A stretch of DNA of 64,000 bases from Candidatus Multivoradales bacterium (lineage in GTDB: Bacteria; Acidobacteriota; Thermoanaerobaculia; Multivoradales; Multivoraceae): assembly GCA_965223325.1 (NCBI GenBank), contig CBDCWI010000002.1, positions 1,568,001 to 1,632,000 on the forward strand, written 5' to 3'. Position 1 is the first letter of the stretch; every line of letters begins with the position of its first letter. Below, piece after piece: positions 37,334-55,963 of the stretch. The notes beneath the pieces were generated by a model. That model was not told the origin of the DNA and made no database searches. It saw only the letters and a program-made list of their open reading frames with translations. Position numbers and translations under genes: made by a program.

Positions 37334-38175
37334 AGGCGACCGGGGCGGCCACTGGAGGCGCGCCGGTTGGCCAGACGCTGCGACGCCAGCAGGATGAGCA
37401 GCAGGCCGAGGAGGGCCAGACCGGCCCCCGACAGGGTCGGAACCTGGATCGCCAGTTGCGAGGTCGTCACCCGAATCAACGCCGCCCGGTGACCGGTGAA
37501 GGTCGGCGCGGCGCTGTCGAGGGCGTTGCCCCAGGTGAAGAAGAGATCTTCGCGCAAGAACAGCGGGATCTCGGGAGTCGTAGGTGTCCAGTCCGCACAC
37601 ACGAAGAAGAAGTCCTCGGCCGAAGGATCCCAGCGCACTCCGATATAGACCGGATCGGTCGCCAACGGGACACTGTCGACGGGCACTTCGTAGAAGGCGC
37701 CCGTGATCCCGGAGGGAACGCCGGTAGCAGAGGCGGCTCGAGAGTAGTAGGGCTGTTCTGCCGGCTTACCTCCGACGTCGGCATAGAACACCAGCTCGAA
37801 GTCGATCTCCTGGTCCGCACGGGTTCGCAGCCAACAAACACAAACCGAGTCGACTCCAGTACGGGGCGCGCCGGAGAACTCCTGCACGTACTCACCCTGG
37901 ACGACGCTCGGAACCCAGCCGTAGCCGTTCTCGACCGTGCCGTCGTCGTTGACGATGCCATCGTCACAAGCGGCGACCGGGGTGAACGATCCGCGCCCCG
38001 GTTCACTGGCGCGAGCAGCGCGCTCCCCGCCCTCTGCCGCCGCGGGCATGACCGAGACCACCATCAGACACATGAGCGAGGCGACGAGGTGGCGTGCTTG
38101 GCACGGGCTGGCAGCCGAAGGAAGGGTCAAAGGTCCGGACTCCGATACTTGAATGAGCTTGATAGAGAGGACCAT
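37330..38175 (-). CDS. Secreted protein with IPTL-CTERM-like sorting signal
   Basis: DDGTVENGYGW; C-terminal QVPTLSGAGLALLGLLLILLASQRLANRR. Confidence 0.7.
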   Translation of the reverse strand: MVLSIKLIQVSESGPLTLPSAASPCQARHLVASLMCLMVVSVMPAAAEGGERAARASEPGRGSFTPVAACDDGIVNDDGTVENGYGWVPSVVQGEYVQEFSGAPRTGVDSVCVCWLRTRADQEIDFELVFYADVGGKPAEQPYYSRAASATGVPSGITGAFYEVPVDSVPLATDPVYIGVRWDPSAEDFFFVCADWTPTTPEIPLFLREDLFFTWGNALDSAAPTFTGHRAALIRVTTSQLAIQVPTLSGAGLALLGLLLILLASQRLANRRASSGRPGRL

Positions 38176-38265
38176 GAGACACGGCCACCGAAGCGAACCA
38201 CGAACCGGTACCCAGAAGAGGCCGAAAAGGCCTAAGCGGAGGTCTACGAAGAATCAGTGCCCACT

Positions 38266-39114
38266 CTACCCCCGCAACGGGGCCACGAGGGAGGCAACCT
38301 CCTTCTCGAGTTTCTTGGCCACCGCAGCGCGACGCTCACCGCTGGCGACGGCGTCCTCGACCAGTCGCACCAGGGCACTGCCAACCACCACCCCATCGGC
38401 CACCTGGCCGACTTGCGCGACTTGTTCGGGGGTCGAGATTCCGAAACCGACCGCGATCGGCCGCTTGATGTCGCGTCGCAGATCCTTGACCTCTCTGTGC
38501 AGCTCGCCGCGCACCTCTTTCTGCTCCCCGGTGACGCCGGCGCGCGAAACGTAGTAGACGAAGCCCCGCGAGACCTCACCGGCCCGTCGAACACGTGTCC
38601 GGGTGCTCGTCGGCGCGACCAGGAAGATCGGGTCGAGCTCCTCGCTGGCGAAGGTCGGCACCACTTCCCGTACTCCCTCCTCGGGCGGCAGATCGACACA
38701 GAGCACACCGTCGACGCCGCTCGCCGCCGCCTGGCTGGCGAAGCGCCCGAGTCCCTTCGCCATCAGGGGGTTCAGGTAGCTGAACAGAACAATCGGGACC
38801 CCCAGCGCATGGCGGCGTCGGGAGATGAGCTCGAGGACCGCATTCAAACGCGTTCCCGCCTCGAGAGCACGGTGGGCAGCGCGCTGATTGACCGGGCCAT
38901 CAGCAATCGGGTCACTGAACGGGATGCCCAGTTCGATGACGTCGGCACCACCGGCAACGAGCGCGTCGAGCAGCACCTCGGTGGCCTGAAGGTCCGGGTC
39001 ACCCGCAACCAGAAAGGGAATGAAGGCCGCCCGACCCTCTGCTCGCGCGCTGGCCATGGCGTCGCCGATCGGCCCTGGGTCGTGGACGAGTTTCTTGCCT
39101 GGCTTGTTGACCAT
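38266..39114 (-). CDS. trpA: Tryptophan synthase alpha chain
   Basis: FLVAGDP, IELGIPFSDPIADGPVNQ, GVTG, VGFGIS. Confidence 0.96.
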   Translation of the reverse strand: MVNKPGKKLVHDPGPIGDAMASARAEGRAAFIPFLVAGDPDLQATEVLLDALVAGGADVIELGIPFSDPIADGPVNQRAAHRALEAGTRLNAVLELISRRRHALGVPIVLFSYLNPLMAKGLGRFASQAAASGVDGVLCVDLPPEEGVREVVPTFASEELDPIFLVAPTSTRTRVRRAGEVSRGFVYYVSRAGVTGEQKEVRGELHREVKDLRRDIKRPIAVGFGISTPEQVAQVGQVADGVVVGSALVRLVEDAVASGERRAAVAKKLEKEVASLVAPLRG

Positions 39115-39134
39115 CTTCCTCTTTTTCGAGCGCT

Positions 39135-40358
39135 TCAAGACACCGCCTCCGAACTCTGCTCCAGCGCCGGGTCCCACGCCAGAACCGACTCGACGTCCTT
39201 GTCTCCGCGGCCCGAGAGGTTGACCAGCACGACCTGCTTGGGCGAGAGCTTTCGGGCCTCGCTGATCGCCTGCGCGACAGCGTGGGCGCTTTCGAGGGCC
39301 GGCAGAATGCCCTCGGTAGCCGCAAGCCGGTGGAAAGCGTCGATTGCCTGTTCATCGGTAACACTCGTGTACTGGACACGGCCGCGCTCGGCGAGTTCGA
39401 CATGCTCCGGACCAACCGCTGGGTAGTCGAGGCCAGCCGAAACCGAGTGCGTCGTCATGACCTGGCCGTCGCCGTCCTGGAGCACCAGGGTGCGTGTTCC
39501 GTGCAGCACTCCGGGCGAACCACCGGCAAAGCGCGCCGCGTGTTCGCCGAGCGCCGAACCGCGGCCGCCAGCTTCGACGCCGAGCAGTCGGACCTTCGAG
39601 TCGCCGAGAAAAGCCGAGAACAGACCGATCGCGTTGCTGCCGCCACCGACGCACGCGACGGCGAGGTCTGGCAGGCGGCGAGCCTGCTGTTTGACCTGCG
39701 CTCGCGCCTCGGCGCCGATCACTCGGTGAAAGTCGCGCACCATACGCGGGAAGGGATCGGGACCGAGCACCGAACCGAGCACATAGTGGGTGCCGCCAAC
39801 CGTCGCGACCCAGTCCCGCATGGCTTCGTTGATGGCATCCTTGAGGGTGCGACTTCCAGCGTCGACTCCGAGAACTTCGGCCCCGAGCAGGCGCATGCGG
39901 TAGACGTTGAGGCGCTGCCGCTGCATGTCCTCGGTACCCATATAGACGACGCACTCCAGCCCCAGGAGAGCCGCAGCAGTGGCGGTCGCCACGCCATGTT
40001 GACCGGCACCGGTTTCGGCGATGACTCTCGTCTTGCCCATCTCTTGAGCGAGCAGACACTGGCCGAGGGCGTTGTTGATCTTGTGCGCACCGGTGTGCAA
40101 CAGGTCTTCACGCTTGAGCCAGATCGCGGCGCCACCGACCTCTTCGCTCAGTCGAGTCGCGCGGTAGAGCGGTGTCGGTCGGCCGACGAAGTCACGCATC
40201 AGCTCATCGAAGCGCTTCTTGAAGCGGCGCGTCTCTGGCACCTTGGCGTAGGCCTGGCGCAGTTCGGCGAGCGGCGCCATCAGGGTTTCGGGCGCAAAGC
40301 ACCCGCCGTAGTCGCCGAAGTAACCCTCTTCGTCCGGCGTGGTCAAACGTCTGGGCAT
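39135..40358 (-). CDS. trpB: Tryptophan synthase beta chain
   Basis: [48 protein letters not shown]. Confidence 0.98.
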
Positions 40359-41062
40359 GTCGCTCCCTGGCCTCCATCGATCTCGATCGTTCCTAGTGCT
40401 TCAAACAAGGCGGCTACCTTCTCCGGGTCTTTGACACCCGGCTCTCTCTCGAGCCCTGAGCACGAGTCCAGGGCATAGACCTCACCGGATCGCAAGAGTG
40501 CCGAGCACACCGTGTCGGGATTGATCCCCCCGGCGAGAAAGACTCGGGGGAGCTGCACCGGCGCAAGCGGCGACGCGCGCGCCAGGGCGAGAACTTCCTG
40601 GACACGATGGTAGTCCCAGGACTCGCCGGTGCCGCCCTGGAGCGTCGCGTGCGGCGTGTCGAAGAGCCACCCGTAGGCATTCGACCACAAGAGCAGCTCG
40701 CCCAGGTCGAGGTTCTCATCAGGCTGGAAGGCCTTGACCACCGCCGCGATCGGAACCGCGATGCCGTCTCTTGCTTCCCCGCCGTGCAGTTGCACCAGAT
40801 CTAGTGGTACCGCCGCTTTGATGGCTGCGATTCCGTTGGGCGGGTGATCGACGAAGACGCCGACCAGGGAAACCGAACCCTCCGCCTCATCGCAGGCGGC
40901 ACGGATCCTGCGGGCGGCAGCCAGGTCGAGCGCCCGCGGGCTCTGGGGGTAGAAGTTCAGCCCCAGGTAGGCGGCCCCGCAGGCCATCGCATGGAGCGCC
41001 TCCTCCGGGGTGCGTACGCCGCACACTTTCACCCTCGGGATGCCCGATGGCGTGCTACTCAC
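40343..41062 (-). CDS. trpF: Phosphoribosylanthranilate isomerase
   Basis: [38 protein letters not shown]; GTG start overlaps the trpC stop. Confidence 0.93.
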
Positions 41063-41852
41063 CGAGCAGCTCCCGCAGGCGCGCCCCGGGGTCCGAGGCC
41101 GTGACCAGCGATTCACCGATGAGAAAGGCATCGAAACCACCGGCTGCGAGGCGCTCGACGTCGGCGCGCGAAAGGATGCCGCTCTCGGCCACCTTGAGTG
41201 CCGACCCTGGAACCCGTGGCGCGAGCTCCAGGGAGTGCTCGAGGTTGACGTCGAAGGTACGGAGGTCACGGTTGTTGATGCCCACCAGCTCGAGCTCGAG
41301 GCCGGCGATCATCTCGAGGTCGCTCGGCTCGTGAGTCTCGACGAGCGGAACGATGTTGCGCGCGCGTGTCTCGGCGACCAGCCGCTCCAACTCGGCGCGC
41401 TCATAGAGCGCCGCGATCAACAGGAGCGCCGATGCGCCAGCCTCCGCGGCCTCGTCGAGTTGCCGGTCGCCGACGACAAAGTCCTTGGCGATCGTCGGCA
41501 GCCCCGAAGCCTCCTGGCAACGGCGAAGCAAGTCGTATGAGCCAAAGAAGAAGTCGGGCTCGACCACCACCGAGAGCGCCGCGGCACCGTTTTGGGCGTA
41601 AGTCTCGGCCTGCTCCTCCGGAACGTAGCGCCCGGTGAGATCGCCAAGTCGTGGCGAGCCCAGTTTGACCTCGGCAATCACTGCGTTGCCGGCTCGTGCC
41701 CTGAGCGCACGCGTGAAAGCGGTCTCGATGAGGCCCGCTGCGGCGGCGGCCTCGGTTCGACCATCACCGGCTCCAACACCCTCGTAACGACGCCGACGCG
41801 CCGCGACGATCTCGAGCAGGATCTCTGCCACCTTGGGCTCGCTCCTGGTCAC
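41055..41852 (-). CDS. trpC: Indole-3-glycerol phosphate synthase
   Basis: IAEVKLGSP, KDFVV, GINNRDLRTF, AESGI, LIGESL. Confidence 0.95.
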   Translation of the reverse strand: MTRSEPKVAEILLEIVAARRRRYEGVGAGDGRTEAAAAAGLIETAFTRALRARAGNAVIAEVKLGSPRLGDLTGRYVPEEQAETYAQNGAAALSVVVEPDFFFGSYDLLRRCQEASGLPTIAKDFVVGDRQLDEAAEAGASALLLIAALYERAELERLVAETRARNIVPLVETHEPSDLEMIAGLELELVGINNRDLRTFDVNLEHSLELAPRVPGSALKVAESGILSRADVERLAAGGFDAFLIGESLVTASDPGARLRELLGE

Positions 41853-42855
41853 GACGAAAAACTCCGCAGGGCCTCGAGCTTTTCTGCCGCCGCTCCGCTC
41901 GCGAGGGCCTCCCGTGCCGCTTCGAAGCCCTCCTCGAGACTCGACGCGACACCGCCCGCCCACAGGGCCGCTGCCGCATTGACGGCGACGACACTCTGGA
42001 GGCGCTCCTCACCACCGGCAAGCAGGCTCTCCATACTGCGAGCATTCTCTTCGGCCGACCCACCAGTCAGTGCGGCGAGCGGCTGTTCTTCGATGCCGAA
42101 GCGCGATGGATCCCAGCGCGTTGTCTGCACCGTGCCGTCTTCGACCACTGCTGCGACCGTCGTGCCGGTCGTCGTGATCTCGTCGAGCCCCTCTCCGTGC
42201 ACCACCAAGGCGCGCTCGGCACCCAGCTGCGCGAGAACCTCGGCAATCGGTTCGACCAGCTCTTCGGCCCACACGCCAATCACCTGCCGCCGGGCACCGG
42301 CCGGGTTGGTGAGCGGACCGAGCAGGTTGAAGATCGTGCGGACCCCGAGGGCGCGACGTACTGGCATGACCTCACGCATTGCCGGATGGAGTCGGGGCGC
42401 GAACAGGAACGCGATGCCGACTTCTTCGAGACAACGAGCGGCTACCTGCGGCTCGAGTTCGAGGCTTACGCCAAGCTCTTCGAGAACGTCGGCGCTCCCC
42501 GAGCGACTCGAAACCGACCGGTTGCCGTGTTTGGCGACCGTCGCACCTGCAGCCGCAGCAACCAGCGCAGCGGCCGTCGAGATGTTGAATGTGCCCGTGC
42601 CGTCGCCACCGGTGCCACAGGTGTCGACGACCTGCGGGAGGGCGTGTGGAATCGGCACCAGACGCGCGCGCATCGCCTGCACCGCACCGACGATCTCGCC
42701 CGGCGACTCTCGCTTGGCGGCCAGCGCAACGAGCAGCGCCGCCTTCTCGATTTCTTCGAGCTCACCGTCCATCAAACGCCCGAACAACGCACGCACTTCG
42801 GCGGTCAGAAGATCTTCGCCGGCGATCAAGCGCTCGAGGGCGGCTCTGGTCTCCA

Positions 42856-42856
<1 letters not shown>
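41849..42856 (-). CDS. trpD: Anthranilate phosphoribosyltransferase
   Basis: DTCGTGGDG, FNIST, KHGNRSVSSRSGSAD, FNLLGPLTNP; start ATG 42856. Confidence 0.96.
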
Positions 42857-43500
<644 letters not shown>

Positions 43501-43509
43501 CGGTGGTCC

Positions 43510-44988
43510 TCAGGCGTCTCGATCTTCGATTGCCGCGGCAAGTGCCAGCGCGGCCAGAAGCGCCGCCGCCTTGTCGCGGGTTTCCTGGGCCTCGGTCAGA
43601 GGATCGCTCTCGGCAACGATCCCCGCGCCGGCGGTAACCGAAGTCGAGTGACCGGCCTGCACCAGGGTGCGAATGGCGATGCAGGTGTCCATATCCCCGC
43701 CCCATGAAAGGTAACCGATGGCGCCACCGTAGGGGCCACGGGCCTCGGGCTCGAGCTCGTCGATAATCTCCATCGCGCGGATCTTGGGAGCGCCCGAGAG
43801 GGTGCCTGCCGGAAAGCACGCCAGCAGAACGTCGAGCGCACTTTGATCGGGCGCCAGGTCGGCGACGACGCTCGAGACGATGTGCATGACGTGCGAGTAG
43901 TGCTCGACCTCCATGAAACTCGCCACCCGCACGCCACCGGGAACCGCGACACGCCCGAGATCGTTGCGCGCCAGGTCGACCAGCATGACGTGCTCGGCGC
44001 ATTCCTTGGGATCTTGAAGGAGCTCCTCAGCCAGAGCCCGATCCTCATCGGCGTTCTGGCCGCGCCGGCGGGTTCCGGCAATCGGTCGCATCTCGGCCTT
44101 GCCAGCAATCGAGCGCACCAGCATCTCAGGAGAGGCCCCAACCAGGGTGAGAGCAGGGTTCTCGAGCAGCACCATGTAGGGACTCGGATTCACCACCCGC
44201 AGGGCGCGATAGAGCAACAGCGGGTCGACTCGCCTCTCCACTTCAAACCGTCGCGCCGGAACCACCTGGAAGATGTCGCCCGCGCGAATGTATTCACGCG
44301 CGGTTTGGACGGCTTCTCCGTAGGCCTCATCTGAGAGCCCGGGAGGAAGCGTCACCGCCGGCGTTGGTTGCTCGGCCGGCAGCGGCACGGCACCACCTTG
44401 GCTCTGCGTAGTCAGGACCTCGGCGAGCCGATCGAGCCCACGGCGGGCGTGCTCGGCGCTCTGCTCGCCGTCGATTTCGTTGGCGATACAGACGACACGC
44501 TGCAGGGCGTGGTCGAAGACCACCACATCGTCGTACCGCGCCAGGGTAGCGATCGGGAGGCCCCACGGATCGGGCGGCCGATCTGGCAGGTGCTCAATGA
44601 GGCGCGAGAGGTCCCACCCGAAGTTGCCCACCAGCCCACCGGCAAAGGGCAAGCCCTCAATGTCGTCGCGCTCCTGTTGAACTCCCTCGCAAACCGCACG
44701 CAGGGCCGCCAGCGGTGCTCCCGGAAGGGTTTCGGATTCCCCGCTCGGGGTGCTCCGTTCGAGGCGATCGGGCCACAGACGGTAGGTCTCGGCCGGCCCG
44801 CTGCCCATGAACGAGAAACGGGAGACCTGTTCTCCCCCGGTCACGCTCTCGAACAGAAAGCCATGCGCGCCCAAGGCGCGCAGGCGGCGGTAGACCTCGA
44901 GAGGAGTCAAGGTATCGGCGAGAAACTCCCGGCGATGGGGCCGGGCCCGTTTGACCTCTGAGGTGCTCGGCGTGCCAGGCTTGTTCAT
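43510..44988 (-). CDS. trpE: Anthranilate synthase component I
   Basis: [48 protein letters not shown]. Confidence 0.95.
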
Positions 44989-46538
44989 GACAGATCTTCC
45001 GACGGCGAACCGGCGGTCGGCAGCCGATGACGGCGTGCAAGCTCACCGGCAACCTCGTCTGGTGAAACGTCGAGCGCTTCGAGGAGCACCATCAGGTGGT
45101 AGCAGAGATCAGCTGCCTCACCGACGAACTCTTCGCGTCCCGAAGCCGCATCGGGCGCTGTGTTTCGCGAGGCGTCGAAGCGTAGGCCAGCAATGATCAC
45201 CTCGGTGGCTTCTTCACCGACCTTCTGGGCAATGCGGTCGACACCCGCCGCCAACAACCGGGAGCTGTACGAAGACTCAGGGGCCGCCTCGCGGCGCGCC
45301 TTGACAACCGCCGCCAACCAACCCAGCTCGAGGCGAGTGGACTCCTCGTCACCGAAGCAGGTGCGGGTACCGAGATGGCATGCCGGGCCGGCGGGTTCGG
45401 CCGTGAGAAGCAAGGTGTCGGCATCGCAGTCAAACCGCAAGTCGACGACTCGCAGAACGTTTCCCGAGGTCTCGCCCTTCTGCCAGAGGCGCTCGCGGCT
45501 GCGGCTGTAAAAGCACGCCAGCCCGGAGTCGAGGGTCTGGGCGACTGCTTCCTGGTTTGCCCACGCAACCATCAGAACCGCCCCGGTCGAGCGGTCTTGA
45601 CAGACCACCGGCACCAGACCGTTGGCGTCGTAGCGGAGGGCTGCGGGGTCGAGGCTCATCTTCGTCATCGTGACCTGTCGCTCATGCGGAGCGCCCTTCC
45701 TGTGTTGCTTCTTCGTGGGAGCAAGCGCCGACGCCGCGCCGTCACCGGCAGCGAGACGCATGGGGAACTCGCCAGCCAGCTGCTCTTTGACCTCGCCCAC
45801 GGTGTACGTTCCGTGATGGAAGATCGAGGCCGCCAGGACCGCGCTGGCGCCCGCACGGAGACCCTCGGCGAGGTGTTCGACCGTGCCAACCCCGCCGGAG
45901 GCGATCACCGGCACCCGCACCGTGGAGGTGACCGCCTCGAGTAGCTCGAGGTCGTAGCCGTGCTGCATGCCGTCAGAGTCGATCGAGGTCAACAGAATCT
46001 CGCCGGCACCGAGAGACACCCCACGCTCGATCCACTCGATCGCATCGAGACCGGTGGCGGTGCGCCCACCGTGGGTTACGACCTCCCAACCCGAGGCGTC
46101 TGGCCGCCGGGCCGCATCGACCGACAGCACCATGCACTGACTGCCGAAGTGCTCCGCGATCTCAGAAAGCAACTCGGGCCGGTTGACGGCTGCGGTGTTG
46201 GTGGCCACCTTGTCGGCACCGGCGAGCAGGAGCTGGCGGGCGTCATCGAGAACCCGCACCCCGCCGCCAACAGTCAGAGGAATGAAGACCTGTCGCGCGG
46301 TTCGGCGAACCCACTCGAGATCCGTGTCGCGCTTCTCCGGGGCGGCCGTGATGTCGAGAAAGACGATCTCGTCGGCTCCCTGGTCGGCGTAGCGCATAGC
46401 CGATTCCGCCGGGTCGCCGAGATCGGTGAGGTTCTTGAAACGCACTCCTTTCACTACCCGACCGGCGCGCACGTCCAGGCAGGGAATGATGCGAAAGGCC
46501 AGCTCGGAGCCCTTCGGAGGATCGTCGAGAAAACTCAT
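44985..46538 (-). CDS. hisF: HisF fused in frame to bifunctional HisIE
   Basis: [15 protein letters not shown], then a linker, then [33 protein letters not shown] and KVGEEATE. Confidence 0.9.
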
Positions 46539-47320
46539 CGCAGAATCTCCGATGCGGTTTCACACCGGCCGCCGGCGAGGGCGACCAGTGCCTCTTCGAG
46601 GGTCATCCGACCGTCCCACAAGGCCCGCCCGACGATCACGCCGAAGATGTGGTCGAGCTCGCCAGTGCGTGCGCGTACCGCGATGCGCTCGAGATCGGCG
46701 ACCGAACCCACTCCGCCCGAGACAATGCCTGGCGCTCCCGCAAGGCGCGCGAGGTGTGCGACCAGATCGACGTTCGGTCCCTCGAGCGTGCCGTCGCGCG
46801 AAACATCGGTCACCAGAACTGCGGCGAGTGGAAGACCTGACAAACCGGCGGCAAACTCATCGAGGGGCGTCTCGGCGGTCTCGGTCCAGCCGGAGACCGC
46901 CAACTGTCCCGCCCGCACATCGAGCGCCGCGACGATGCGCTTCGGGTGAGCCAGGACGAGGTCACGAAAGCCCTCGGGATCACGCACCATCATCGAACCC
47001 ACGACGACCCGTTCGCAGCCCGCGGCGAGCGCCCAGTCGACCCCAGAACGATCGCTGAAGCCACCGCCGACCTGGAGACTGGGGGCCGTGACTTCACCGA
47101 AATTCGTGCGCGCGAGGCTTTCGAGCAGCGGCCTCTGCGGCGCTTCGCCAAAGGCACCGTCAAGGTCGACGATATGAACCCAGCGCACTCCGGCACGTGC
47201 GAACTCGAAGAGAGCCTTTTCGGGAGGTGTCGGGTACTCGGTGCGCGAGTCGTCTTCGCCGCGCAGCAGTCGCACGACTCCCCCCTGGCGGAGATCGATC
47301 GCCGGCAACAGTTCGATCAT
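46535..47320 (-). CDS. hisA: ProFAR isomerase
   Basis: [38 protein letters not shown]; start ATG 47320. Confidence 0.95.
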
Positions 47321-48012
47321 GCCGCGGCCTCCCGCCTTTCGGACACCGCACGGAGGAAGTTGCACAAAAGCCTGAGACCGACGCGCCCACTCTTCTCGGG
47401 ATGAAACTGAGTCCCCACCACCGAGCCATGAGCGACGACGGCAGGAAACCGGCGACCGTGGAGTGCGGTGGCCAACGCTACCGACGCGGGTACGTCGACT
47501 GGTGCATACGAGTGTACGAAGTAGGCGTGCGCGCCTTCGGGCGTATCGGCTAGCAGGTCCGGGAAGTCTGACGTGGTGTTCTCGGTGCCCTCGCGCGGCA
47601 GCAAGCGCAGACGGTTCCAACCGATGTGAGGCAGCGCCACAGAACTCGGCAGGCGCTCGATATGCCCTGGAACCAGACCCAGCCCGTCGGTCTCGCCGAA
47701 CTCTGAGCTCGATTCGAACAGGAGCTGAAACCCGACACAGATCCCAAACAGCGGCACGCCGCGACGGACTGCTCCCTTGATGGCCTCTTCGAGCGCTCCG
47801 CGCAAGGCCTCGCGCGGCGGCCGAAAGGCCCCCACCCCGGGAAGAAAGAGACAGTCCGCGCGCGCTACCCGTGCGGCTTCGGTGGTGCGCTTCGGCACCG
47901 CACCGAGGGCTGCAAGGGCGCGCTCGAGATTGCCCAGGTTACCGACGCCGGCGTCGATCACCACCACTTCGAGCGCACCGGCCTCGAGCTCCTTGTCGCG
48001 AGTTGCCGTCAC
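47317..48012 (-). CDS. hisH: Imidazole glycerol phosphate synthase amidotransferase subunit
   Basis: LPGVGAF, GICVGFQ, PHIGWN, YFVHSY, QFHPEKS. Confidence 0.96.
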   Translation of the reverse strand: MTATRDKELEAGALEVVVIDAGVGNLGNLERALAALGAVPKRTTEAARVARADCLFLPGVGAFRPPREALRGALEEAIKGAVRRGVPLFGICVGFQLLFESSSEFGETDGLGLVPGHIERLPSSVALPHIGWNRLRLLPREGTENTTSDFPDLLADTPEGAHAYFVHSYAPVDVPASVALATALHGRRFPAVVAHGSVVGTQFHPEKSGRVGLRLLCNFLRAVSERREAAA

Positions 48013-48698
48013 GACGTCAGTGTCCCTTTGGTACTCGGAATGCCCGCACCGGTCGCCGCGATCGCAGTCGCTTCCTTGAGAGCGAGAGCCGCAGCCTTGA
48101 AACAGGCCTCGGCGGCGTGGTGTGGATTGCGCGCCCGCAGCACATCGAGATGCAGGGTGAATCTCCCGCGGTCGGCGAAGGCCTGGAAAAAGTCCTCGAC
48201 CAGGGTCATCGGGAAATCGCGCGTCACCCAGGACAGGGCGATCTCGCGGGGGAGCTCATGAACCAGATACCCCCGGCCCGAGAGGTCGACGACCGCCCGC
48301 GCCAGAGCCTCGTCGAGCGGCGCGTAGGCGGAGGCAAACCGCCTGATCCCGCGGCGGGTCCCGAGCGCTTCATGAAGCGCATCGCCGAGGACGATTCCGG
48401 TGTCTTCGACGGTGTGATGCAGGTCAATGTGGGTATCGCCGCGTGTGGAGACCTCGAGCTCCATGCCGCTGTGGCGGCCGAGGGCATCGAGCATGTGGGC
48501 GAAGAACCCGTCGGGCACGTCGATCTCGGGCAGAGCAGGCATCGGCGTATCGAAGGCCAGCTTGACCTCGATCTCGGTCTCGGCAGTCGACCGCGCCTGG
48601 GTGGAAACGCGACGCGCGACCGGCGATCGCTTCTTCTTCTTCTTCTTGGCGGCCTTCTTCGAACGCGACCTGGGAGTCGACTTCTTGCGTGCACTCAT
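48009..48698 (-). CDS. hisB: Imidazoleglycerol-phosphate dehydratase (monofunctional)
   Basis: FFAHML, DLHHTVED, PLDEAL, NPHHAAEACFK, IPSTKG. Confidence 0.96.
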   Translation of the reverse strand: MSARKKSTPRSRSKKAAKKKKKKRSPVARRVSTQARSTAETEIEVKLAFDTPMPALPEIDVPDGFFAHMLDALGRHSGMELEVSTRGDTHIDLHHTVEDTGIVLGDALHEALGTRRGIRRFASAYAPLDEALARAVVDLSGRGYLVHELPREIALSWVTRDFPMTLVEDFFQAFADRGRFTLHLDVLRARNPHHAAEACFKAAALALKEATAIAATGAGIPSTKGTLTS

Positions 48699-49834
48699 GC
48701 CTGTTCTCCTTCGGCGACTGCCGTTCTTCCTCCACCCAGGATCTCGGCGAGGGCAGTGCGGGTGGCGCGAAGCGCCGGGCCATCGCCGACCCCGATGCGC
48801 AGGCAGCCGGCCAGCCCTGGATAGTGCCCCATTTCCCGCACCAGAATGCCGCGCGCGGCGAGGCCCTCGCGCACCACCGCGCTCTCTGCTGGCGAAGCCG
48901 CCCGCACCAGGAGGAAGTTGCCCTCACTGGGAAACACGAACAGCCCCTGGTCGCGCAGCATTTGCGCCCATTGCCCCCGACGCGCACGAGTCACCCGGAC
49001 CGCGCGCTCGGAAAAGTGTGGGTTCTCGACCGCCACCTCGCCGGCGATCGCCGTCGCGTGCGAGATCGTGTACGGCAGGGCGACCTTGCGCAATTCGACC
49101 ACGAAGCGGGCGTCGCCGAGCACGTACCCGAGGCGACTGCCGGCCAGCGACCAGGCCTTCGAGAAGGTACGGAAGATGACCAGGTTGGGATAGCGCAAGA
49201 GAAGCGGCCGATAGTCGTAGCGACAGTACTCGCCGTAGGCGTTGTCGAGGAGAAGCGGCGCATCGAGCCGTTCACAAAGGTCAGCGACCGCTTCGACCGG
49301 CGCCGCTGCGCCGGTCGGATTGTTGGGCGAGCACAGAAGAATCGGGCGCGTCGGATCGTCGCTCGCCAGAGCACGCAGCTCGGCGAGCGGCAGCTGGAGG
49401 TCAGAGCGCGGCTCGACGAACCGAGGCACCCCGCCGGCGCGCTCGATGAAGGCGGGATAGAGACCGAAACTGGGCAGAACGGACACCACCTCGCGAACCG
49501 GCCTGGCTTCGGCGTTGTCCGTTCTGGCCGGCGGCGTCCCAACGATCGCCGAGAGCACCACGCCCAGGAGCTCGTTCGAGCCGTTGCCCACCATCACCGA
49601 GTCGGCCGGGACGCCGTGCCTCTCGGCGAGCAACGCTCGCAGGCGATCGGCAAAGAAGTCCGGGTAACGACCCCAGTGGCGCTCCATCAAACGACGCGCG
49701 ACCTCACGTTTTAGAACCAGGGGCATATCCTGTGGGACCTCGTTCTGGTCCAGCTTGAAGAGGGCGGGCACCTGGTCGAGCGTGTAGGCCGAGAGCGCCC
49801 GCACCTCGGGGCGAATAAAGCGCGTGGGATCCAT
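48695..49834 (-). CDS. hisC: Histidinol-phosphate aminotransferase
   Basis: KLDQNE, GNGSNE, CSPNNPTG, RTFSKAWSLAGSRLG. Confidence 0.95.
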   Translation of the reverse strand: MDPTRFIRPEVRALSAYTLDQVPALFKLDQNEVPQDMPLVLKREVARRLMERHWGRYPDFFADRLRALLAERHGVPADSVMVGNGSNELLGVVLSAIVGTPPARTDNAEARPVREVVSVLPSFGLYPAFIERAGGVPRFVEPRSDLQLPLAELRALASDDPTRPILLCSPNNPTGAAAPVEAVADLCERLDAPLLLDNAYGEYCRYDYRPLLLRYPNLVIFRTFSKAWSLAGSRLGYVLGDARFVVELRKVALPYTISHATAIAGEVAVENPHFSERAVRVTRARRGQWAQMLRDQGLFVFPSEGNFLLVRAASPAESAVVREGLAARGILVREMGHYPGLAGCLRIGVGDGPALRATRTALAEILGGGRTAVAEGEQA

Positions 49835-49843
49835 CGCCAGCCC

Positions 49844-51211
49844 TTACTCTCTGTCCAGGAGATCGGTATGCGCCGACAGCTCGTCTTCGAGCTCATCCGC
49901 ATCGAGGCCACCGGAGCGCAGGAGCGCCGAACGAGCATGTGCCTCGAGACCCTCGACACGTGCAAGGGTCGCAGCGGCTGCCGCCCACGGCACGACCTCG
50001 TTCTCGTCGAACCGTACGACGTGCCAACGACGTTTGAAATCGCCGACTCCGAGACCTGAAGCGTAGCGCGCCGTTCCACCGGTCGGCAGCACGTGACTGG
50101 GGCCGGCGACATAGTCGCCGAGAACGACCGGCGCCGACGGCCCGACGAAGACCGCGCCTGCAGAGCGCATCTGCGGCGCGAGCTCGACAGCGTCGAGACC
50201 GAGCAACTGCAGATGCTCGGGAGCCAACCGTTCGGCGATCGCGGCTGCCTGCTCGAGATCTTTGGTGAGCAGAATCGCACCCCGAGTCTGGAGTGCCAGG
50301 GCGGCAGTCTCGGCGGTGGGCAGCCCTTCGAGCTGTCGATCGACCTCGCGGGCGACGCGACCGGCGAGATCGCGATCGGGCGTCACCAGAACCGCCATCG
50401 CCTCCGGATCGTGCTCGGCCTGGGCCAAGAGGTCGGCGGCGACGAACCCGCACGGCGCATCGGCTGAGGCGACAATCACTACTTCCGACGGGCCGGCGAA
50501 GCGGTCAATGCCCACGACCCCTTTGACCTGCTCTTTGGCGGCCGTCACCCAGACGCCACCCGGGCCAGCGATGAAATCGACCGGGTCGATGGTCTCGGTG
50601 CCGTAGGCGACCGCGGCAATGCCGTGGGCACCGCCCATGCCCCAGATCTCATCGACTTCGAGTCGAGACAGCGCCCAGCGCAGCGCCGGGCTCTCGAGGA
50701 AGGCGCGCGGCGGCGTGACCACCACGATCTCGCGCACGCCGGCGATACGTGCCGGAATGACCGACATGGCGACCGTCGACGGGTAGAGAAAGCGCCCGCC
50801 GGGAACATAAAGCGCCACGCGCTCGAACGCTTCGACTCGCTCCTCGACGTGCTTCCCGTCGGCTTCGAGAACGTATCCCTGGTGGTGGCCTTCTCGGTGA
50901 TAGTGCTCGATCGAAGACACGGCGCGTTCGAAGGCGTTTTGGAAACCCGGCGGCAGATCGCGTGGCCGTAGACTCTCCACGTCGCGCCGGCGGTCCAAGC
51001 GAAGCGCGCGGACTTCGTCCTCTTCGACCCCGTCGTACTGCGCCACCGCCCGCAAGAGCGCGAAGTCGCCCCCTCGCCGAACCGAACGCAGGATCTTCTC
51101 GACCCGGCGCACGGTGCGCCGGTCGATGGCGAGATCGCCGCGGCCTTCCAACGACTCGAGCAGGCGGCGACCACGGCGGGTATTCACCTTGATGGGTTTG
51201 AGGACCGGCAT
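49844..51211 (-). CDS. hisD: Histidinol dehydrogenase
   Basis: YVPGG, AGPSE, LAQAEHD, APEHL, GDYVAGPSHVLPT, EGLEAHA. Confidence 0.96.
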   Translation of the reverse strand: MPVLKPIKVNTRRGRRLLESLEGRGDLAIDRRTVRRVEKILRSVRRGGDFALLRAVAQYDGVEEDEVRALRLDRRRDVESLRPRDLPPGFQNAFERAVSSIEHYHREGHHQGYVLEADGKHVEERVEAFERVALYVPGGRFLYPSTVAMSVIPARIAGVREIVVVTPPRAFLESPALRWALSRLEVDEIWGMGGAHGIAAVAYGTETIDPVDFIAGPGGVWVTAAKEQVKGVVGIDRFAGPSEVVIVASADAPCGFVAADLLAQAEHDPEAMAVLVTPDRDLAGRVAREVDRQLEGLPTAETAALALQTRGAILLTKDLEQAAAIAERLAPEHLQLLGLDAVELAPQMRSAGAVFVGPSAPVVLGDYVAGPSHVLPTGGTARYASGLGVGDFKRRWHVVRFDENEVVPWAAAAATLARVEGLEAHARSALLRSGGLDADELEDELSAHTDLLDRE

Positions 51212-51244
51212 CTAACACCCCCTACGCTGCGAGCGCGACTGATC

Positions 51245-51288
51245 TTCTCGGGTTCTCGGTGTTCTCTGTGTCCTCTGTGTTCTCTGCC
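51245..51288. repeat. Imperfect 9-bp tandem repeat (TTCTCTGTG)x~5 between hisG and hisD
   Basis: TTCTCGGG TTCTCGGTG TTCTCTGTG TCCTCTGTG TTCTCTGCC. Confidence 0.85.
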
Positions 51289-51903
51289 TCATTCGACGAC
51301 TCCTGCGGCCTCGAGGCCACACGTCAATTCTCGCAGGGGCGCCCGCAGGGCCTGCCAGGCCGCTCGGTTGACCACCAGCGTCGGCGCCACCTCAGCCAGG
51401 ACCGTGACCTCGAAGAGTCCGTGCTCGCGGATGGTACGCCCGGTCTGGACGATGTCGCAGGCGATGTCGGCCAGGTCGAGCAGCGGTCCGAGCTCGACCG
51501 ATCCATAGAGCTTGAAGATCTCGGGGCCAAAACCGCGCGCCACCAGCAGCCGGCGACTCCACTCTGGATACTTGGTCGCAACGCGCAACTCGGCGCCCCG
51601 CTCAGGTTCGATGTCGTCCTTCCTGATGATCGAGAAGCGACTGCGGCCCGCCAGGAGGCGCAGGGGTTCGAGCACGTCGGCTCCGACCTCGGCGAGAACA
51701 TCGCTACCGACCACTCCGCAATCGGCAATGCCGTACTCGACGTAAAGCGGCACGTCCCAGTCCTTGAGCAGCAACACTTCGACGCCGCTCCCGAGTCGCT
51801 GCGAAAGACGCTCGGAATCGAGGCCCGCGAGCTCGAGGCCGGCCTCTTCGAAAGCCTGGACCGTCGGGGTGAGGTTGCGACCCTTGGGAAGTGCGATGCG
51901 CAT
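51289..51903 (-). CDS. hisG: ATP phosphoribosyltransferase, short form
   Basis: IALPKGR, DVPLYVEYG, VATKYP, GSVELGP, DIVQTGRT; no ACT domain. Confidence 0.95.
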   Translation of the reverse strand: MRIALPKGRNLTPTVQAFEEAGLELAGLDSERLSQRLGSGVEVLLLKDWDVPLYVEYGIADCGVVGSDVLAEVGADVLEPLRLLAGRSRFSIIRKDDIEPERGAELRVATKYPEWSRRLLVARGFGPEIFKLYGSVELGPLLDLADIACDIVQTGRTIREHGLFEVTVLAEVAPTLVVNRAAWQALRAPLRELTCGLEAAGVVE

Positions 51904-52904
51904 CAGCGCCGCCGTCCGGAGGCCAGCAGTCGATCGACACCGAGTGAAAACCCGATCGCCGGCGTGACACCGCTCTCCATCGGGGCAAGACTCGAGAACA
52001 AAGAGTCGTAGCGACCCCCCTGGCCAAACGGTACGGCAGAGTCGCCGGGGTAGGCGCGAAAGACGATGCCGTCATAGTAGGTGTAGCGCCGGTCGACGAT
52101 TCCGAGTGCGGAGTCGAGAGTGTTGGAGGCGTACTCTGCCAGGTCAACACTGAGACGCAGGCCGCCGCCAGAGAAATCTTCTCCCAACCGGTGCGCCAAG
52201 CCGATGAGCCGCTCGACCCTCGGCGCGCTGTCACCCAGGGCTTCGAGATCGTTGGGCGCCCCCTGTTCGAGGACTTCGAGAAGTACCGGGTGAGCGCGCT
52301 TCACCGCCGCCCGATCACGACGCGCCAGGGCGCCTGCGAGATCAGCCGAAGAGCTCCCAGAAGGCGGCACCGCAAGCAACCCGTCGAGCGCCCCCGCCAC
52401 CCCGAGGACCACCTGGGCCCCATCGCCGCTGGCGACGAGCAGTTCCAGAAAGAGCCGCAGCATGCGCTCGTCATCACTCGCCTCCCCCTCCGGGCCCTGA
52501 GGACTCTCGCGACCCACGAGCTCGGCACCGACTTCGTAGTACTCCCTGAGTCGCCCGGGACGCGGAAGCTCGTGCCGGATGACGTCGCCTCGGTAGAACA
52601 CCTCGATCGGCAGCTCGAAGTTGCACAGCCGCGGCGCGAGCAGTCGGGCGATCATGGCGGTGAAGTCGGAACGCAGGCCGAGCAACTGACCGTCTCGATC
52701 GACGAACCGATACGACGCCTGGCGAACGCGGTCGGCCAGCAGATCCTTGTAGGGCTCCCAGTAGTCGAGCACCGGGAGCAGGATCTCGCCAAAACCAGCC
52801 GCCTCGAGGCGCCCCACCAGACGTTGCTCGAGCGCGCGGCGACGTGCGGCCTCCTCGAACAGGAGCGCCGTCACGCCAGCGGGAAGATCGGTGCGGATTC
52901 TCAT
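51903..52904 (-). CDS. hisZ: ATP phosphoribosyltransferase regulatory subunit
   Basis: HisRS-like LRSDFT, REYYEVGAEL, YYDGIVF, GGRYD, AIGFSLG. Confidence 0.9.
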   Translation of the reverse strand: MRIRTDLPAGVTALLFEEAARRRALEQRLVGRLEAAGFGEILLPVLDYWEPYKDLLADRVRQASYRFVDRDGQLLGLRSDFTAMIARLLAPRLCNFELPIEVFYRGDVIRHELPRPGRLREYYEVGAELVGRESPQGPEGEASDDERMLRLFLELLVASGDGAQVVLGVAGALDGLLAVPPSGSSSADLAGALARRDRAAVKRAHPVLLEVLEQGAPNDLEALGDSAPRVERLIGLAHRLGEDFSGGGLRLSVDLAEYASNTLDSALGIVDRRYTYYDGIVFRAYPGDSAVPFGQGGRYDSLFSSLAPMESGVTPAIGFSLGVDRLLASGRRR

Positions 52905-54481
52905 TGCAGAGCGGCTCCCGGGCGCTTGGCTACGCCGGCGACCGTCTTGCCAGCCAGGAGCTCGGCGGCTATTTCCATCGGCAGGGCTTCACCGGTCATC
53001 AGGCGGAACTGGGTGGCTGCCTGATGGAGTAGCACGTCGCGCCCCGTGATCACCGGACCGAAGGCGCGCGCCTGTTCTTCGAGCGCCGTCGGTTCCTTGC
53101 CGTAGACCATCTCGACCACCGCCGTACCCTCTTTCTGTTGGTTCACCCGCCAGGGTGTCTCGGCGGAGCCGCCGCTTCCAACCGACGTCGCGTTGACCAG
53201 GATCTCGAAACGCGACGGGTCGAAGTCCGCAAGCGCGATGAATGGCACGCCAAGAAGCGTCGCCAACTGCTCGCCTCGCTCCTGGCTGCGGTTCACCACC
53301 ACCAGCTCGGCACCCTGAGCGGCGAGACCAGCCGCGGCGGCACGTCCGGCGCCGCCGCACCCGACGACCGCTGCTCGCCGACCGGCAGGCACAACGCCAG
53401 CGGCGGCCAATCCCCCAAGCACCCCCTCGGGATCGGTTGATTCGGCCTCCCACACCCGCCCGCGGCGATCACAGCCGCTGCGCACGAGGGTATTGGCTGA
53501 ATCGATTCTCTGCGCCAGTGGGCTGGACGCTCCAGCGATCGCGAGAGCCGCTCTCTTGTGCGGCGCGGTGACCGATAGCCCACGCAAGATGGAGGCCTCT
53601 TCGGCACCGCTCCAGAAGTCGCTCTCGACCACCTCGAGCCAGAAGTGGCCGAACTCGGCGGCTTCGAACGGCAGGTAGAGACCAGGCAGCCCGAGCGCCC
53701 GATAGGCACCGTTGTGGAGCCGCGGCGACAGCGAGTGACTGACCGGCGAGCCTACGATGCCGCAAGCCCAGTCGAACTTGGGCAGGTACGGGAAGCCGAA
53801 GTCTGAAACCAGCGCCGAAAGCGCCAGTTGGCCAGGAGCTGCCGGCTGATCTCCGAACGCTGCGAACATCACCGGTGCACCCAGGGTGGGTGCCACGACG
53901 CGAGTCCAGCTCGCGACTGCGCCGGTGGCAAAGGCCAGCACGTCTTGGCGACCGAGTTTTCTGAGCAGCTCGAGGGCCGGCAACTCATGGCCGCTGCGCG
54001 TGGCGCTGGGAATCAGCTTGTAGAGCGCCGCCGGCACCGAGTCCATGGCGCGGAGGCGCTCGTTGAGACCCTCGGCCGTGTCATGTGTACCAGGCGCCGC
54101 ATGCCACGACAGCACCCGGCGCTCGGCCGGAACGGCCGCCAGGACATCGGCGCTCAGATCGCGCTCGGCCTCGAGGTCGACGGCATCGAACTGATCGGCG
54201 GCCTGTTTGAGAAAGAGCGCACGCTCCTCCGCTGAGCGTTCGCAGGCACCACCCTCGGCGCGCGATCGCAGGGTGAAGAGAAGCGGCGACCCGGTGCGCG
54301 CACGCAGCCACTCGACATCGACAGACCCGAGGAGGTCAGCGCGCACCTCGATCCATGGCACGACGCCCGCCGCACCAAACTCGGGCATCTCGAGAGCGGC
54401 AGGCAACGCCTCTTCCAGTGCCGTCAGGCTGGCGATCACCGAGATTCGCCCTTCCGGGTGCGTTTTGTCGTTCAGAATCAA
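52901..54481 (-). CDS. aroDE: Bifunctional type I 3-dehydroquinate dehydratase / shikimate dehydrogenase (AroDE)
   Basis: IEVRAD, FTLRSRAEGG, LSWH, AAPGQ; then GSPVSHSLSPRLHN, SVTAPHK, GCGGAGRA, VNATSVG; TTG start with GGAGG 5 nt upstream. Confidence 0.9.
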   Translation of the reverse strand: MILNDKTHPEGRISVIASLTALEEALPAALEMPEFGAAGVVPWIEVRADLLGSVDVEWLRARTGSPLLFTLRSRAEGGACERSAEERALFLKQAADQFDAVDLEAERDLSADVLAAVPAERRVLSWHAAPGTHDTAEGLNERLRAMDSVPAALYKLIPSATRSGHELPALELLRKLGRQDVLAFATGAVASWTRVVAPTLGAPVMFAAFGDQPAAPGQLALSALVSDFGFPYLPKFDWACGIVGSPVSHSLSPRLHNGAYRALGLPGLYLPFEAAEFGHFWLEVVESDFWSGAEEASILRGLSVTAPHKRAALAIAGASSPLAQRIDSANTLVRSGCDRRGRVWEAESTDPEGVLGGLAAAGVVPAGRRAAVVGCGGAGRAAAAGLAAQGAELVVVNRSQERGEQLATLLGVPFIALADFDPSRFEILVNATSVGSGGSAETPWRVNQQKEGTAVVEMVYGKEPTALEEQARAFGPVITGRDVLLHQAATQFRLMTGEALPMEIAAELLAGKTVAGVAKRPGAALQ

Positions 54482-54513
54482 GAAAGCCTCCGTCCGGTCA
54501 GGGAGGAGGCTCT
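54473..54513 (-). terminator. Attenuator hairpin (terminator-like, sequesters the aroDE RBS)
   Basis: Minus strand AGAGCCTCC-TCC-CTGACC-GGA-C-GGAGGCTTT followed by CTTGATTCT. Confidence 0.75.
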
Positions 54514-54571
54514 ACCGCCGTTGGCTGAACGCTCGACCCGGACCGCGAGTGGACCGGGACGAAGCCCAGTC

Positions 54572-54676
54572 TCACCCTTCAGTATGCACGTGCCACCAAC
54601 CCGAATAGAGCGCCGAGCGCTCGCCGGAGGGCGCGATCCCAAAGGTACGAACTTCGCTAAAGGTGGTTGTAGTCAT
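54572..54676 (-). CDS. Leader peptide MTTTTFSEVRTFGIAPSGERSALYSGWWHVHTEG (34 aa)
   Basis: ATG..TGA ORF with TGG TGG CAC GTG CAT cluster, between a promoter and a terminator hairpin upstream of the his/trp operon. Confidence 0.8.
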   Translation of the reverse strand: MTTTTFSEVRTFGIAPSGERSALYSGWWHVHTEG

Positions 54677-54714
54677 CGTCAGGGTCCCGCGCTCTTTCTG
54701 GCTTCGGGGCAGTG

Positions 54715-54743
54715 ATTACAGCAATCCGGCCAAAACCTGTCAA
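54715..54743 (-). promoter_or_regulatory. Sigma70-type promoter of the aro-his-trp operon
   Basis: TTGACA-N17-TGTAAT on the minus strand. Confidence 0.65.
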
Positions 54744-54865
54744 GCGAGCCTCCTCCAACCGTCGCCGCCCAGAGTCCGACGCGGGCTCGCCCAGTCAACT
54801 GGAACGGGGTACTAGACTGCGGTCCGCCCCAGCTTTCGACCTTCCTCCAACACCCCCGCCGATCC

Positions 54866-55963
54866 ATGCTCAAGAAGCTCGTCCTCCTCGTCGCCTCCAC
54901 CCTGTTCTCGGTCGTTTTGATCGAAGTCGGGGTGCGCGGGTGGTTCTGGTCGAAAGGCATCGGCCGCACCGACGTCCGTGACATTCTCCAGCGCTCGCAG
55001 GGCGACGGCCCGGTACAGCTGGAGGGCGGCAGCGGTCTCTTCGGGATCATTCAGGCGAGCGAGCACGACGACATCGTCTACCAACTCAAACCGCACCTCG
55101 AGGGCGTCTTCAAGGGCGCGCCGGTCGAGATCAACCCCGATGGATTCCGCGGCCCCCAGGTGTCGCTCGAGAAACCCGAGGGGGTGCGGCGCATCGTCGG
55201 CATCGGTGACTCACACATGTTCGGCTGGGGTGTCGGCAACGACGAGACCTATCTCTCCGTTCTCGAGTCGCGACTCAATCGAGAAGACCCCGGAAAGCGC
55301 AAGTGGCAGGTGCTCAACTTCGCCGTCCCCGGCTACAACACCAAGATGGAGGTCGCAACCTTCGAGAAACGAGCGCTGGCCTACGACCCTGACCTGGTGA
55401 TCATTCACTTCATCGGCAATGACTTCGCTCCGCCTCACTTTCTCGACACCAAACGTTCGATCGCTCCCAGCCAGTGGTACTCGGTCGAACTGCTGCGCGG
55501 ACTGCTCTTGGAACCCGAAGAAGACACCGCGATCGCCTTTGACCCCGACACCAACGGCGGCGACACCGACCCGGGCGAGGCAGACGCTCCGCTGCCGGGA
55601 AGTCGTCAGTGGTACGAAAAAGACTTTGGCGGCCGCGAGGTTTTCGTTGCGGCCATGGACCGACTCGCTGGCTTGTCTCGCGAACACGATGTTCCGGTCA
55701 TCACTTTGATCCTCGGCAGCCACGGCCAGGTGCGTCAGTTCGTGCTCGAGACTGCGCGCGAGCGTGGCTTCTATACCCTCGACGCTGCCGAGCACTGGTG
55801 GCGTGCGATTGACGCGATGGGACTCGAACGCACCCAACAGAACTGGAAAGAGCAGCTTGGGCGAGGGGTCGAACGCCACCCCAAAGCCGCCGGACACGCC
55901 GCCTACAGTGACGCTCTTTTCGACGCCGTCGTGGAGGTCTTGCCGCCGCCGGCTGCTCCCTAG
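54866..55963 (+). CDS. SGNH/GDSL hydrolase family protein
   Basis: INPDGFRG, IGDSHMFGWG, NFAVPGYN, GND, HPKAAGH. Confidence 0.85.
   Translation: MLKKLVLLVASTLFSVVLIEVGVRGWFWSKGIGRTDVRDILQRSQGDGPVQLEGGSGLFGIIQASEHDDIVYQLKPHLEGVFKGAPVEINPDGFRGPQVSLEKPEGVRRIVGIGDSHMFGWGVGNDETYLSVLESRLNREDPGKRKWQVLNFAVPGYNTKMEVATFEKRALAYDPDLVIIHFIGNDFAPPHFLDTKRSIAPSQWYSVELLRGLLLEPEEDTAIAFDPDTNGGDTDPGEADAPLPGSRQWYEKDFGGREVFVAAMDRLAGLSREHDVPVITLILGSHGQVRQFVLETARERGFYTLDAAEHWWRAIDAMGLERTQQNWKEQLGRGVERHPKAAGHAAYSDALFDAVVEVLPPPAAP

Follow-up and report, generated by a model that had tools for sequence, protein, structure and literature searches.

The aro-his-trp operon found in a 64,000-nucleotide stretch of Candidatus Multivoradales bacterium DNA (contig CBDCWI010000002.1 of assembly GCA_965223325.1; the whole stretch is hereafter called the window) is headed by a leader region that is very likely a two-input, ribosome-mediated leader-peptide attenuator responding to charged tRNA-Trp and charged tRNA-His and placed before a single aroDE-his-trp operon. 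Attenuation as a principle is textbook knowledge, while for the two-pathway Trp/His version, which very probably switches the operon on when either amino acid is short, no description was found in the literature searched. The original prediction, made from the window alone, had proposed that one leader senses both tRNAs and acts by termination, by occlusion of the ribosome-binding site or by both. Comparison with related genomes supports this proposal, as the relay of pairing segments is conserved and the codons are lost with the genes. The attenuator features, the leader and the aroDE-his-trp genes all lie on the minus strand of the window, and are listed below with the source of each call in brackets.

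54715-54743, minus strand: promoter-like site, TTGACA (54743-54738), 17-nt spacer, TGTAAT (54720-54715) (sequence reading).
54572-54676, minus strand: leader open reading frame (ORF), 34 codons including the stop, ATG at 54676-54674 and TGA at 54574-54572 (sequence reading and ORF listing).
54584-54598, minus strand: putative regulatory codons, Trp-Trp at 54598-54593, His at 54592-54590 and His at 54586-54584 (sequence reading).
54547-54577, minus strand: hairpin A:B, with the A core (54571-54565) abutting the stop codon and B at 54558-54552 (minimum-free-energy folds and alignment).
54532-54544, minus strand: segment C, alternative partner of B or of the terminator 5' arm (alignment pairing).
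54484-54512, minus strand: terminator hairpin, 5' arm 54512-54502, loop 54501-54496, 3' arm 54495-54484 (folding).
54487-54491, minus strand: GGAGG ribosome-binding site of aroDE, within the terminator 3' arm (sequence reading).
54474-54485, minus strand: U-rich tail of the terminator, containing the aroDE TTG start at 54481-54479 (sequence reading).
52901-54481, minus strand: aroDE, type I dehydroquinase fused to shikimate dehydrogenase, 526-aa ORF with a TTG start (Pfam).
44985-52904, minus strand: hisZ, hisG, hisD, hisC, hisB, hisH, hisA and a hisF-hisIE fusion (Pfam).
38266-44988, minus strand: trpE, trpG, trpD, trpC, trpF, trpB and trpA (Pfam).

The promoter hexamers, the 34-codon ORF and the terminator-like hairpin were read in the sequence where they had been predicted, and the content of the merged operon was confirmed by Pfam. 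From 54481 to 38266, gene ends mostly overlap or nearly abut, and overlaps within the his block are mostly 1-4 nt long. The fusion of hisF to hisI and hisE is a single 517-aa ORF (window 44985-46538, minus strand) matching the Pfam families His_biosynth, PRA-CH and PRA-PH. Three features of leader-peptide attenuators were found: a short upstream ORF with end-product codons (Trp or His within the last 14 codons, as tabulated for 106 copies), an intrinsic terminator between this ORF and the first gene (54512-54484 followed by the U-rich tail), and an antiterminator helix that uses the terminator 5' arm (C:T5', where T5' is that arm). The outer helix of hairpin A:B takes in the last sense codon and the stop codon of the leader. 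Segment C has two possible partners: B (54560-54551 with 54544-54535) and the terminator 5' arm (54541-54532 with 54508-54499). The terminator hairpin, formed by 11 pairs with one bulge, has an energy of about -17 kcal/mol.

Homologues of aroDE were found in 40 of 41 related genomes. Among the first 30 loci inspected, 22 feature a short frame just upstream of aroDE that ends with Trp codons and, after them, His codons. For 39 relatives, about 19 kb of surrounding sequence was obtained, and gene order was mapped by tblastn. Most of these relatives have the aro-his-trp operon as in the window, and nearly all carry a short frame of similar kind, in which an in-frame ATG precedes the stop by 23-38 codons. 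The alignment A2, made from 33 leaders, contains conserved blocks in a fixed order, namely Trp codons, His codons, stop, segment A, B, C, terminator and T-rich tail; CAC and CAT alternate at the aligned His positions. Conservation does not extend to the N-terminal parts of the leaders, and sensing of Phe and Tyr through F6, F12 and Y24, also suggested in the original prediction, is rejected for this reason.

A covariance model built from A2 (R1) finds a single match in the source genome (E = 2e-17). Two further rows (E = 0.2 and 0.8), one in a coding region and one behind a gene end, were discarded as chance hits. Matches to R1 were obtained in 114 of the 151 genomes of the order sample and in 37 of the 151 genomes of the class sample, the latter including a second order with leaders of 12-13 codons. 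A search for related loci gave at least 3 close named relatives among the matches listed. A named Thermoanaerobaculia metagenome-assembled genome (L031) also carries a match to R1, and R1 found none in two other metagenome-assembled genomes, from Terriglobia and Thermoanaerobaculaceae (L032 and L033). In the second order, six loci (L138-L143; family f19, genus g40) have the same layout, with one Trp and three or four His codons in their 12-13-codon leaders. Their hairpin sequences are more divergent, and E values range from 1e-7 to 1e-4.

The Trp and His codons in the leader track the presence of trp and his genes in the operon, as judged by comparing sequences. Codons within the last 14 leader codons were tabulated for 106 copies against the genes found downstream, 5 copies not being classable; the counts, given below, describe a pattern and are not a statistical test because related genomes are not independent.

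his and trp downstream, 66 copies: Trp codon in 66; His pair or spaced pair (HH or HxH) in 65; three or more His in 53.
his seen, contig ending before trp, 18 copies: Trp codon in 17; HH or HxH in 18; three or more His in 17.
trp without his, 16 copies: Trp codon in 15; HH or HxH in 2; three or more His in 1.
his only, 1 copy (L167, 13 kb seen): no Trp codon; HH or HxH in 1; three or more His in 1.

The copies with trp and without his span six families (f4, f5, f6, f9, f10 and f11), and the sole one among them that lacks a Trp codon is a partial model match at which no ORF was found. The leader of the his-only operon at L167 has four His codons and no Trp. The same composition is seen at L185, where the leader lies before his genes and the contig stops after hisA. 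In genus g95, four his-containing operons have leaders with 3-4 His codons, versus 0-1 in four his-less operons. Conservation of Trp and His codons among relatives, the check proposed with the original prediction, was observed in the order sample and extends to a link between codons and operon content.

These data bear on the possibility that the attenuator has a single input, only Trp (or only His) codons being relevant and the others being passengers. A single Trp codon is found in 17 of the 66 leaders preceding his and trp genes, as this would allow, and the his-less, aroDE-trp operon of G032 (L076) retains three His codons next to one Trp, an exception to the pattern; G159, a congener of G032, has the full operon. 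A single input is nevertheless very unlikely, because the His pair or run occurs in 65 of 66 leaders before his and trp genes versus 2 of 16 before his-less operons, Trp is absent from the his-only case, and the His run was lost together with the his genes in g95.

Two mutually exclusive sets of helices in the leader RNA were scored on the 33 loci of A2. Controls were obtained by sliding the 3' partner by 1-3 columns and from 500 shuffles, and shuffles overstate the support because the genomes are related.

Read-through set, A:B with C:T5': 86.2% of cells paired (35-65% when slid); 8 pairs changed on both sides; covariation score reached by 0 of 500 shuffles.
Termination set, B:C with terminator: 87.6% of cells paired (37-66% when slid); 11 pairs changed on both sides; covariation score reached by 0 of 500 shuffles.

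Covariation of the hairpins, the second check suggested at the outset, is thus above all shuffles for both sets. Helix by helix, pairing amounts to 81.4% for A:B (A2 columns 48-55 with 66-73), 93.5% for B:C, 90.0% for C:T5' (4 pairs changed on both sides) and 83.6% for the terminator (columns 120-130 with 157-167; 7 pairs changed on both sides). A different antiterminator had been proposed originally, in which the end of the leader pairs with the terminator 5' arm. The two can indeed pair, in 82.6% of cells, yet changes on both sides of a pair are absent, and pairing is as frequent or more so in 406 of 500 shuffles; segment C (54541-54532) has better support as the antiterminator.

Most helix columns show conservation and not covariation, which limits the proof that covariation can offer. 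Such conservation is expected, because each segment has two partners. In PMC1262725, motifs engaged in multiple interactions are reported to stay conserved over large distances, as they do in the present element. Sequence variation in segments B and C and in the terminator arms is unusually low across the whole order, as it would be if a protein or a small ligand bound to these RNA blocks and the short ORF were secondary. We hold this to be highly improbable, since having two pairing partners is by itself enough to constrain the sequences, since binding leaves the link between codons and operon unexplained, and since no Rfam family matches: a scan of 53500-55500 with E values up to 10 yielded three unrelated chance rows, and no His_leader, Trp_leader, T-box or riboswitch.

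The position of the pairing segments relative to the leader ORF fits control by a translating ribosome. In all 33 loci the A core lies close behind the stop codon, its beginning 0-6 nt and its end 5-12 nt away, and a terminating ribosome would therefore cover A. The distance from the last Trp or His codon to the stop ranges from 6 to 30 nt. This variable spacing is hard to reconcile with a TnaC-like nascent peptide, which would arrest the ribosome upon sensing the free amino acid. A conserved Trp-Trp pair with His codons after it, near the C terminus, would suit such a peptide; leaders range from 12 to over 40 codons, though, and the peptide outside the Trp/His region is not conserved, making nascent-peptide arrest extremely improbable.

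For the two-input attenuator we infer the following course of leader translation, stalling, helix formation and termination. Transcription would start from the promoter at 54715-54743, and the 34-codon leader would be translated while RNA polymerase proceeds. When Trp and His are both plentiful, the ribosome would reach the stop codon and cover segment A, leaving B to pair with C; the terminator hairpin would then form and transcription would end in the U-rich tail. The same hairpin would simultaneously bury the GGAGG of aroDE, with the TTG start lying in the tail. When either charged tRNA is scarce, the ribosome would stall 12-24 nt before the stop, and A would pair with B. Segment C, being free, would take the terminator 5' arm, resulting in read-through and in exposure of the ribosome-binding site. 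The principle that the position of the ribosome chooses the fold of the leader is set out in PMC9413887.

The placement of GGAGG in the 3' arm and of the TTG start in the U-rich tail, both pointed out in the original prediction and confirmed in the window, implies that the terminator also sequesters the ribosome site of aroDE. In 31 of the 33 loci an in-frame TTG opening aroDE is located 2-11 nt past a 3' arm bearing GGAGG. The arrangement raises the alternative that the attenuator is purely translational, the hairpin at 54512-54484 hiding the ribosome site and start of aroDE with no termination. Consistent with this, the tail in the window is a U-run broken by C, G and A, and a U-count rule failed in 6 of 33 loci. 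Most loci nonetheless have a U-rich run after the hairpin. Moreover, in family f8 the hairpin and tail are located about 50 nt before hisZ, the start of which lies elsewhere, and occlusion alone would not explain conservation there. We regard a purely translational device as unlikely, although termination and translational occlusion are not mutually exclusive.

Several results weigh against two-input attenuation, in addition to the G032 exception, the conservation of most helix columns and the inflation of shuffle controls by relatedness. The antiterminator is weak in the window, where 7 of the 10 C:T5' pairs form. Folding at equilibrium with ribosome masks did not reveal a switch, as the terminator dominates at every ribosome position. 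The decision moment was mimicked by cutting the RNA before the 3' arm and placing the ribosome either at the first Trp or His codon or at the stop. The terminator 5' arm is more sequestered under the stalled ribosome, by at least 0.2, in 11 of 33 loci only; there is little change in 19 and a change in the reverse direction in 3. The masked folds proposed as a check on the original prediction therefore gave a clear switch in part of the cut RNAs and none at equilibrium. The window is among the 11 switching loci, with sequestration values of 0.41 against 0.77.

Viewed as a single sequence, the whole 251-nt leader folds no better than shuffles (z = -0.33), as might be expected of a chance ORF beside an ordinary hairpin. 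The probability of such a coincidence is practically negligible, being refuted by the presence of matches in 114 of the 151 order-sample genomes and by the codon-operon link; the feature stands out from chance because it is conserved in relatives, not because of the single sequence. Similarly, a consensus promoter scanner made no call on the 54715-54743 site, because the second base of the -10 hexamer (TGTAAT) is G. TTGACA and TGTAAT hexamers separated by 17-18 nt are found upstream of the leader in 9 of the 33 aligned loci and at L088. Hexamers (TTGACA or TTGACG, 17 nt, TGTAAT) are also present at L074 and L077, where aroDE is alone and there is no attenuator, and TGTAAT could thus be the -10 form commonly used in this lineage.

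The genomic distribution of the element indicates that it follows the his-trp block, not aroDE. The element precedes hisZ, with aroDE elsewhere or upstream, at L088, L078, L147 and L167. In G034, for instance, it lies before hisZ and aroDE is about 5 kb away. In G031, an element with its own promoter-like site is located between aroDE and hisZ, and in G171 an element with a promoter-like site lies directly before hisZ. In G036, the element lies before hisZ on one contig, and a lone aroDE is found on a different contig. Searches with R1 yielded no match at three of three lone-aroDE loci (L074, L077 and L081), nor at two aroDE-trp loci of family f5, in which aroDE directly follows another gene.

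In family f8 (L078:12780-13200, minus strand, and L147, first 520 nt of the reverse strand), the attenuator lies directly before hisZ. At L078, aroDE is just upstream of the attenuator; the L147 sequence stops short of this region. The TTG that follows the terminator opens a mini-ORF of about 12-16 codons, ending at or just before the hisZ start, which may be a remnant serving translational coupling.

Leader-peptide attenuation is known mainly from Proteobacteria, Actinobacteria and some Firmicutes, with nearly always one amino acid per leader. In trpL, tandem Trp codons are found shortly before the leader stop, and the terminating ribosome covers the segment after the stop. The present element resembles E. 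coli trpL (Rfam Trp_leader) in its tandem Trp codons near the stop and in a post-stop segment that a ribosome could cover; it differs in having an extra relay hairpin, His codons, a different operon and no Rfam match. The hisL leader comprises a short ORF with His codons and more than four RNA segments whose pairings exclude one another, and it ends with an intrinsic terminator. A leader ORF with His codons, a relay of exclusive segments and a terminator are shared with enterobacterial hisL (Rfam His_leader). In contrast, the element described here also has Trp codons, belongs to another phylum, precedes a 17-gene aro-his-trp operon and has a terminator that would double as a sequester of the ribosome site and start.

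Multivalent attenuators are known in E. coli, in which the thr leader contains Thr and Ile codons and the ilv leaders contain Ile, Leu and Val codons. As in these, one leader would report several amino acids; in the thr and ilv leaders the amino acids share a branched pathway, whereas here two unrelated pathways are joined in one operon. A literature search for "multivalent attenuation" found no paper using the term. Aromatic, trp and a his-family gene are also cotranscribed in the aromatic supraoperon of Bacillus subtilis. The likeness lies in the joint transcription of aromatic, trp and his-family genes. Gene content and order differ, and the B. subtilis supraoperon is run by the RNA-binding protein TRAP, the control of trp by which is treated in PMC4027176, and not by a translated leader as here.

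The trpL-type class of attenuators is described in PMC1183508. Candidate attenuators of Actinobacteria and Firmicutes, composed of a leader ORF, a terminator and an antiterminator, were obtained by comparative genomics (PMC1262725 and PMC9413887); in the sections covered, the leaders are dedicated to a single amino acid (Trp, or three to five His codons), none is from Acidobacteriota and none has both. No Trp and His leader is described in the covered parts of PMC1262725, PMC4833913, PMC10138114, PMC9413887 and PMC8632094. Full-text literature searches likewise returned no such leader, and none in Acidobacteriota, within a scope that excluded older subscription surveys and supplementary tables, which could hold one.

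One leader apparently reporting amino acids of two unrelated pathways accounts for the control of a merged 17-gene aro-his-trp operon from a single promoter. It also adds to the regulatory annotation of a phylum that has been little studied, and exemplifies a terminator doubling as a translation gate. As codons and genes change together in more than 100 related genomes, which form a natural mutagenesis series, the rules of specificity are directly testable. The chances are about even that the element is, more broadly, a reusable attenuator chassis across the bacterial class: an OR gate for two unrelated amino acids, retargeted by edits of the leader codons (Trp only, His only, both and, possibly, the aromatic-rich leader of G054 described below), with a terminator acting at two levels.

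G054, a member of another family of the class, carries a weak R1 match (E about 1e-4; L144:1112-1260, minus strand). The leader has 16 codons, including one Trp, two Phe, four Tyr and no His, and the downstream genes encode a type II chorismate mutase (L144:835-1128, minus strand) and a 3-deoxy-D-arabino-heptulosonate 7-phosphate (DAHP) synthase (L144:3-914, minus strand). This leader may be a retargeted relative of the attenuator. In genus g11, the stretch from the attenuator TTG to the conserved body of aroDE contains tandem repeats of a 27-bp unit. L105:19186-19288 contains 3.8 copies of the unit (98% match), and repeats are also found at L092, L096, L098 and L100. The length of the repeat stretch varies among species; given the period of 27, the reading frame would be kept. 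In one genome of the same genus, a second copy of the attenuator precedes a second aroDE interrupted by the stop codons TAG, TAG and TAA (G011:C1:387599-389249), an arrangement that looks like a decayed duplicate.

At the other end of the operon, the gene after trpA (window 37330-38175, minus strand) encodes a 281-aa protein that matches Pfam only at an IPTL-CTERM sorting motif. Between trpA and this gene there is a weak hairpin, near 38215-38233.

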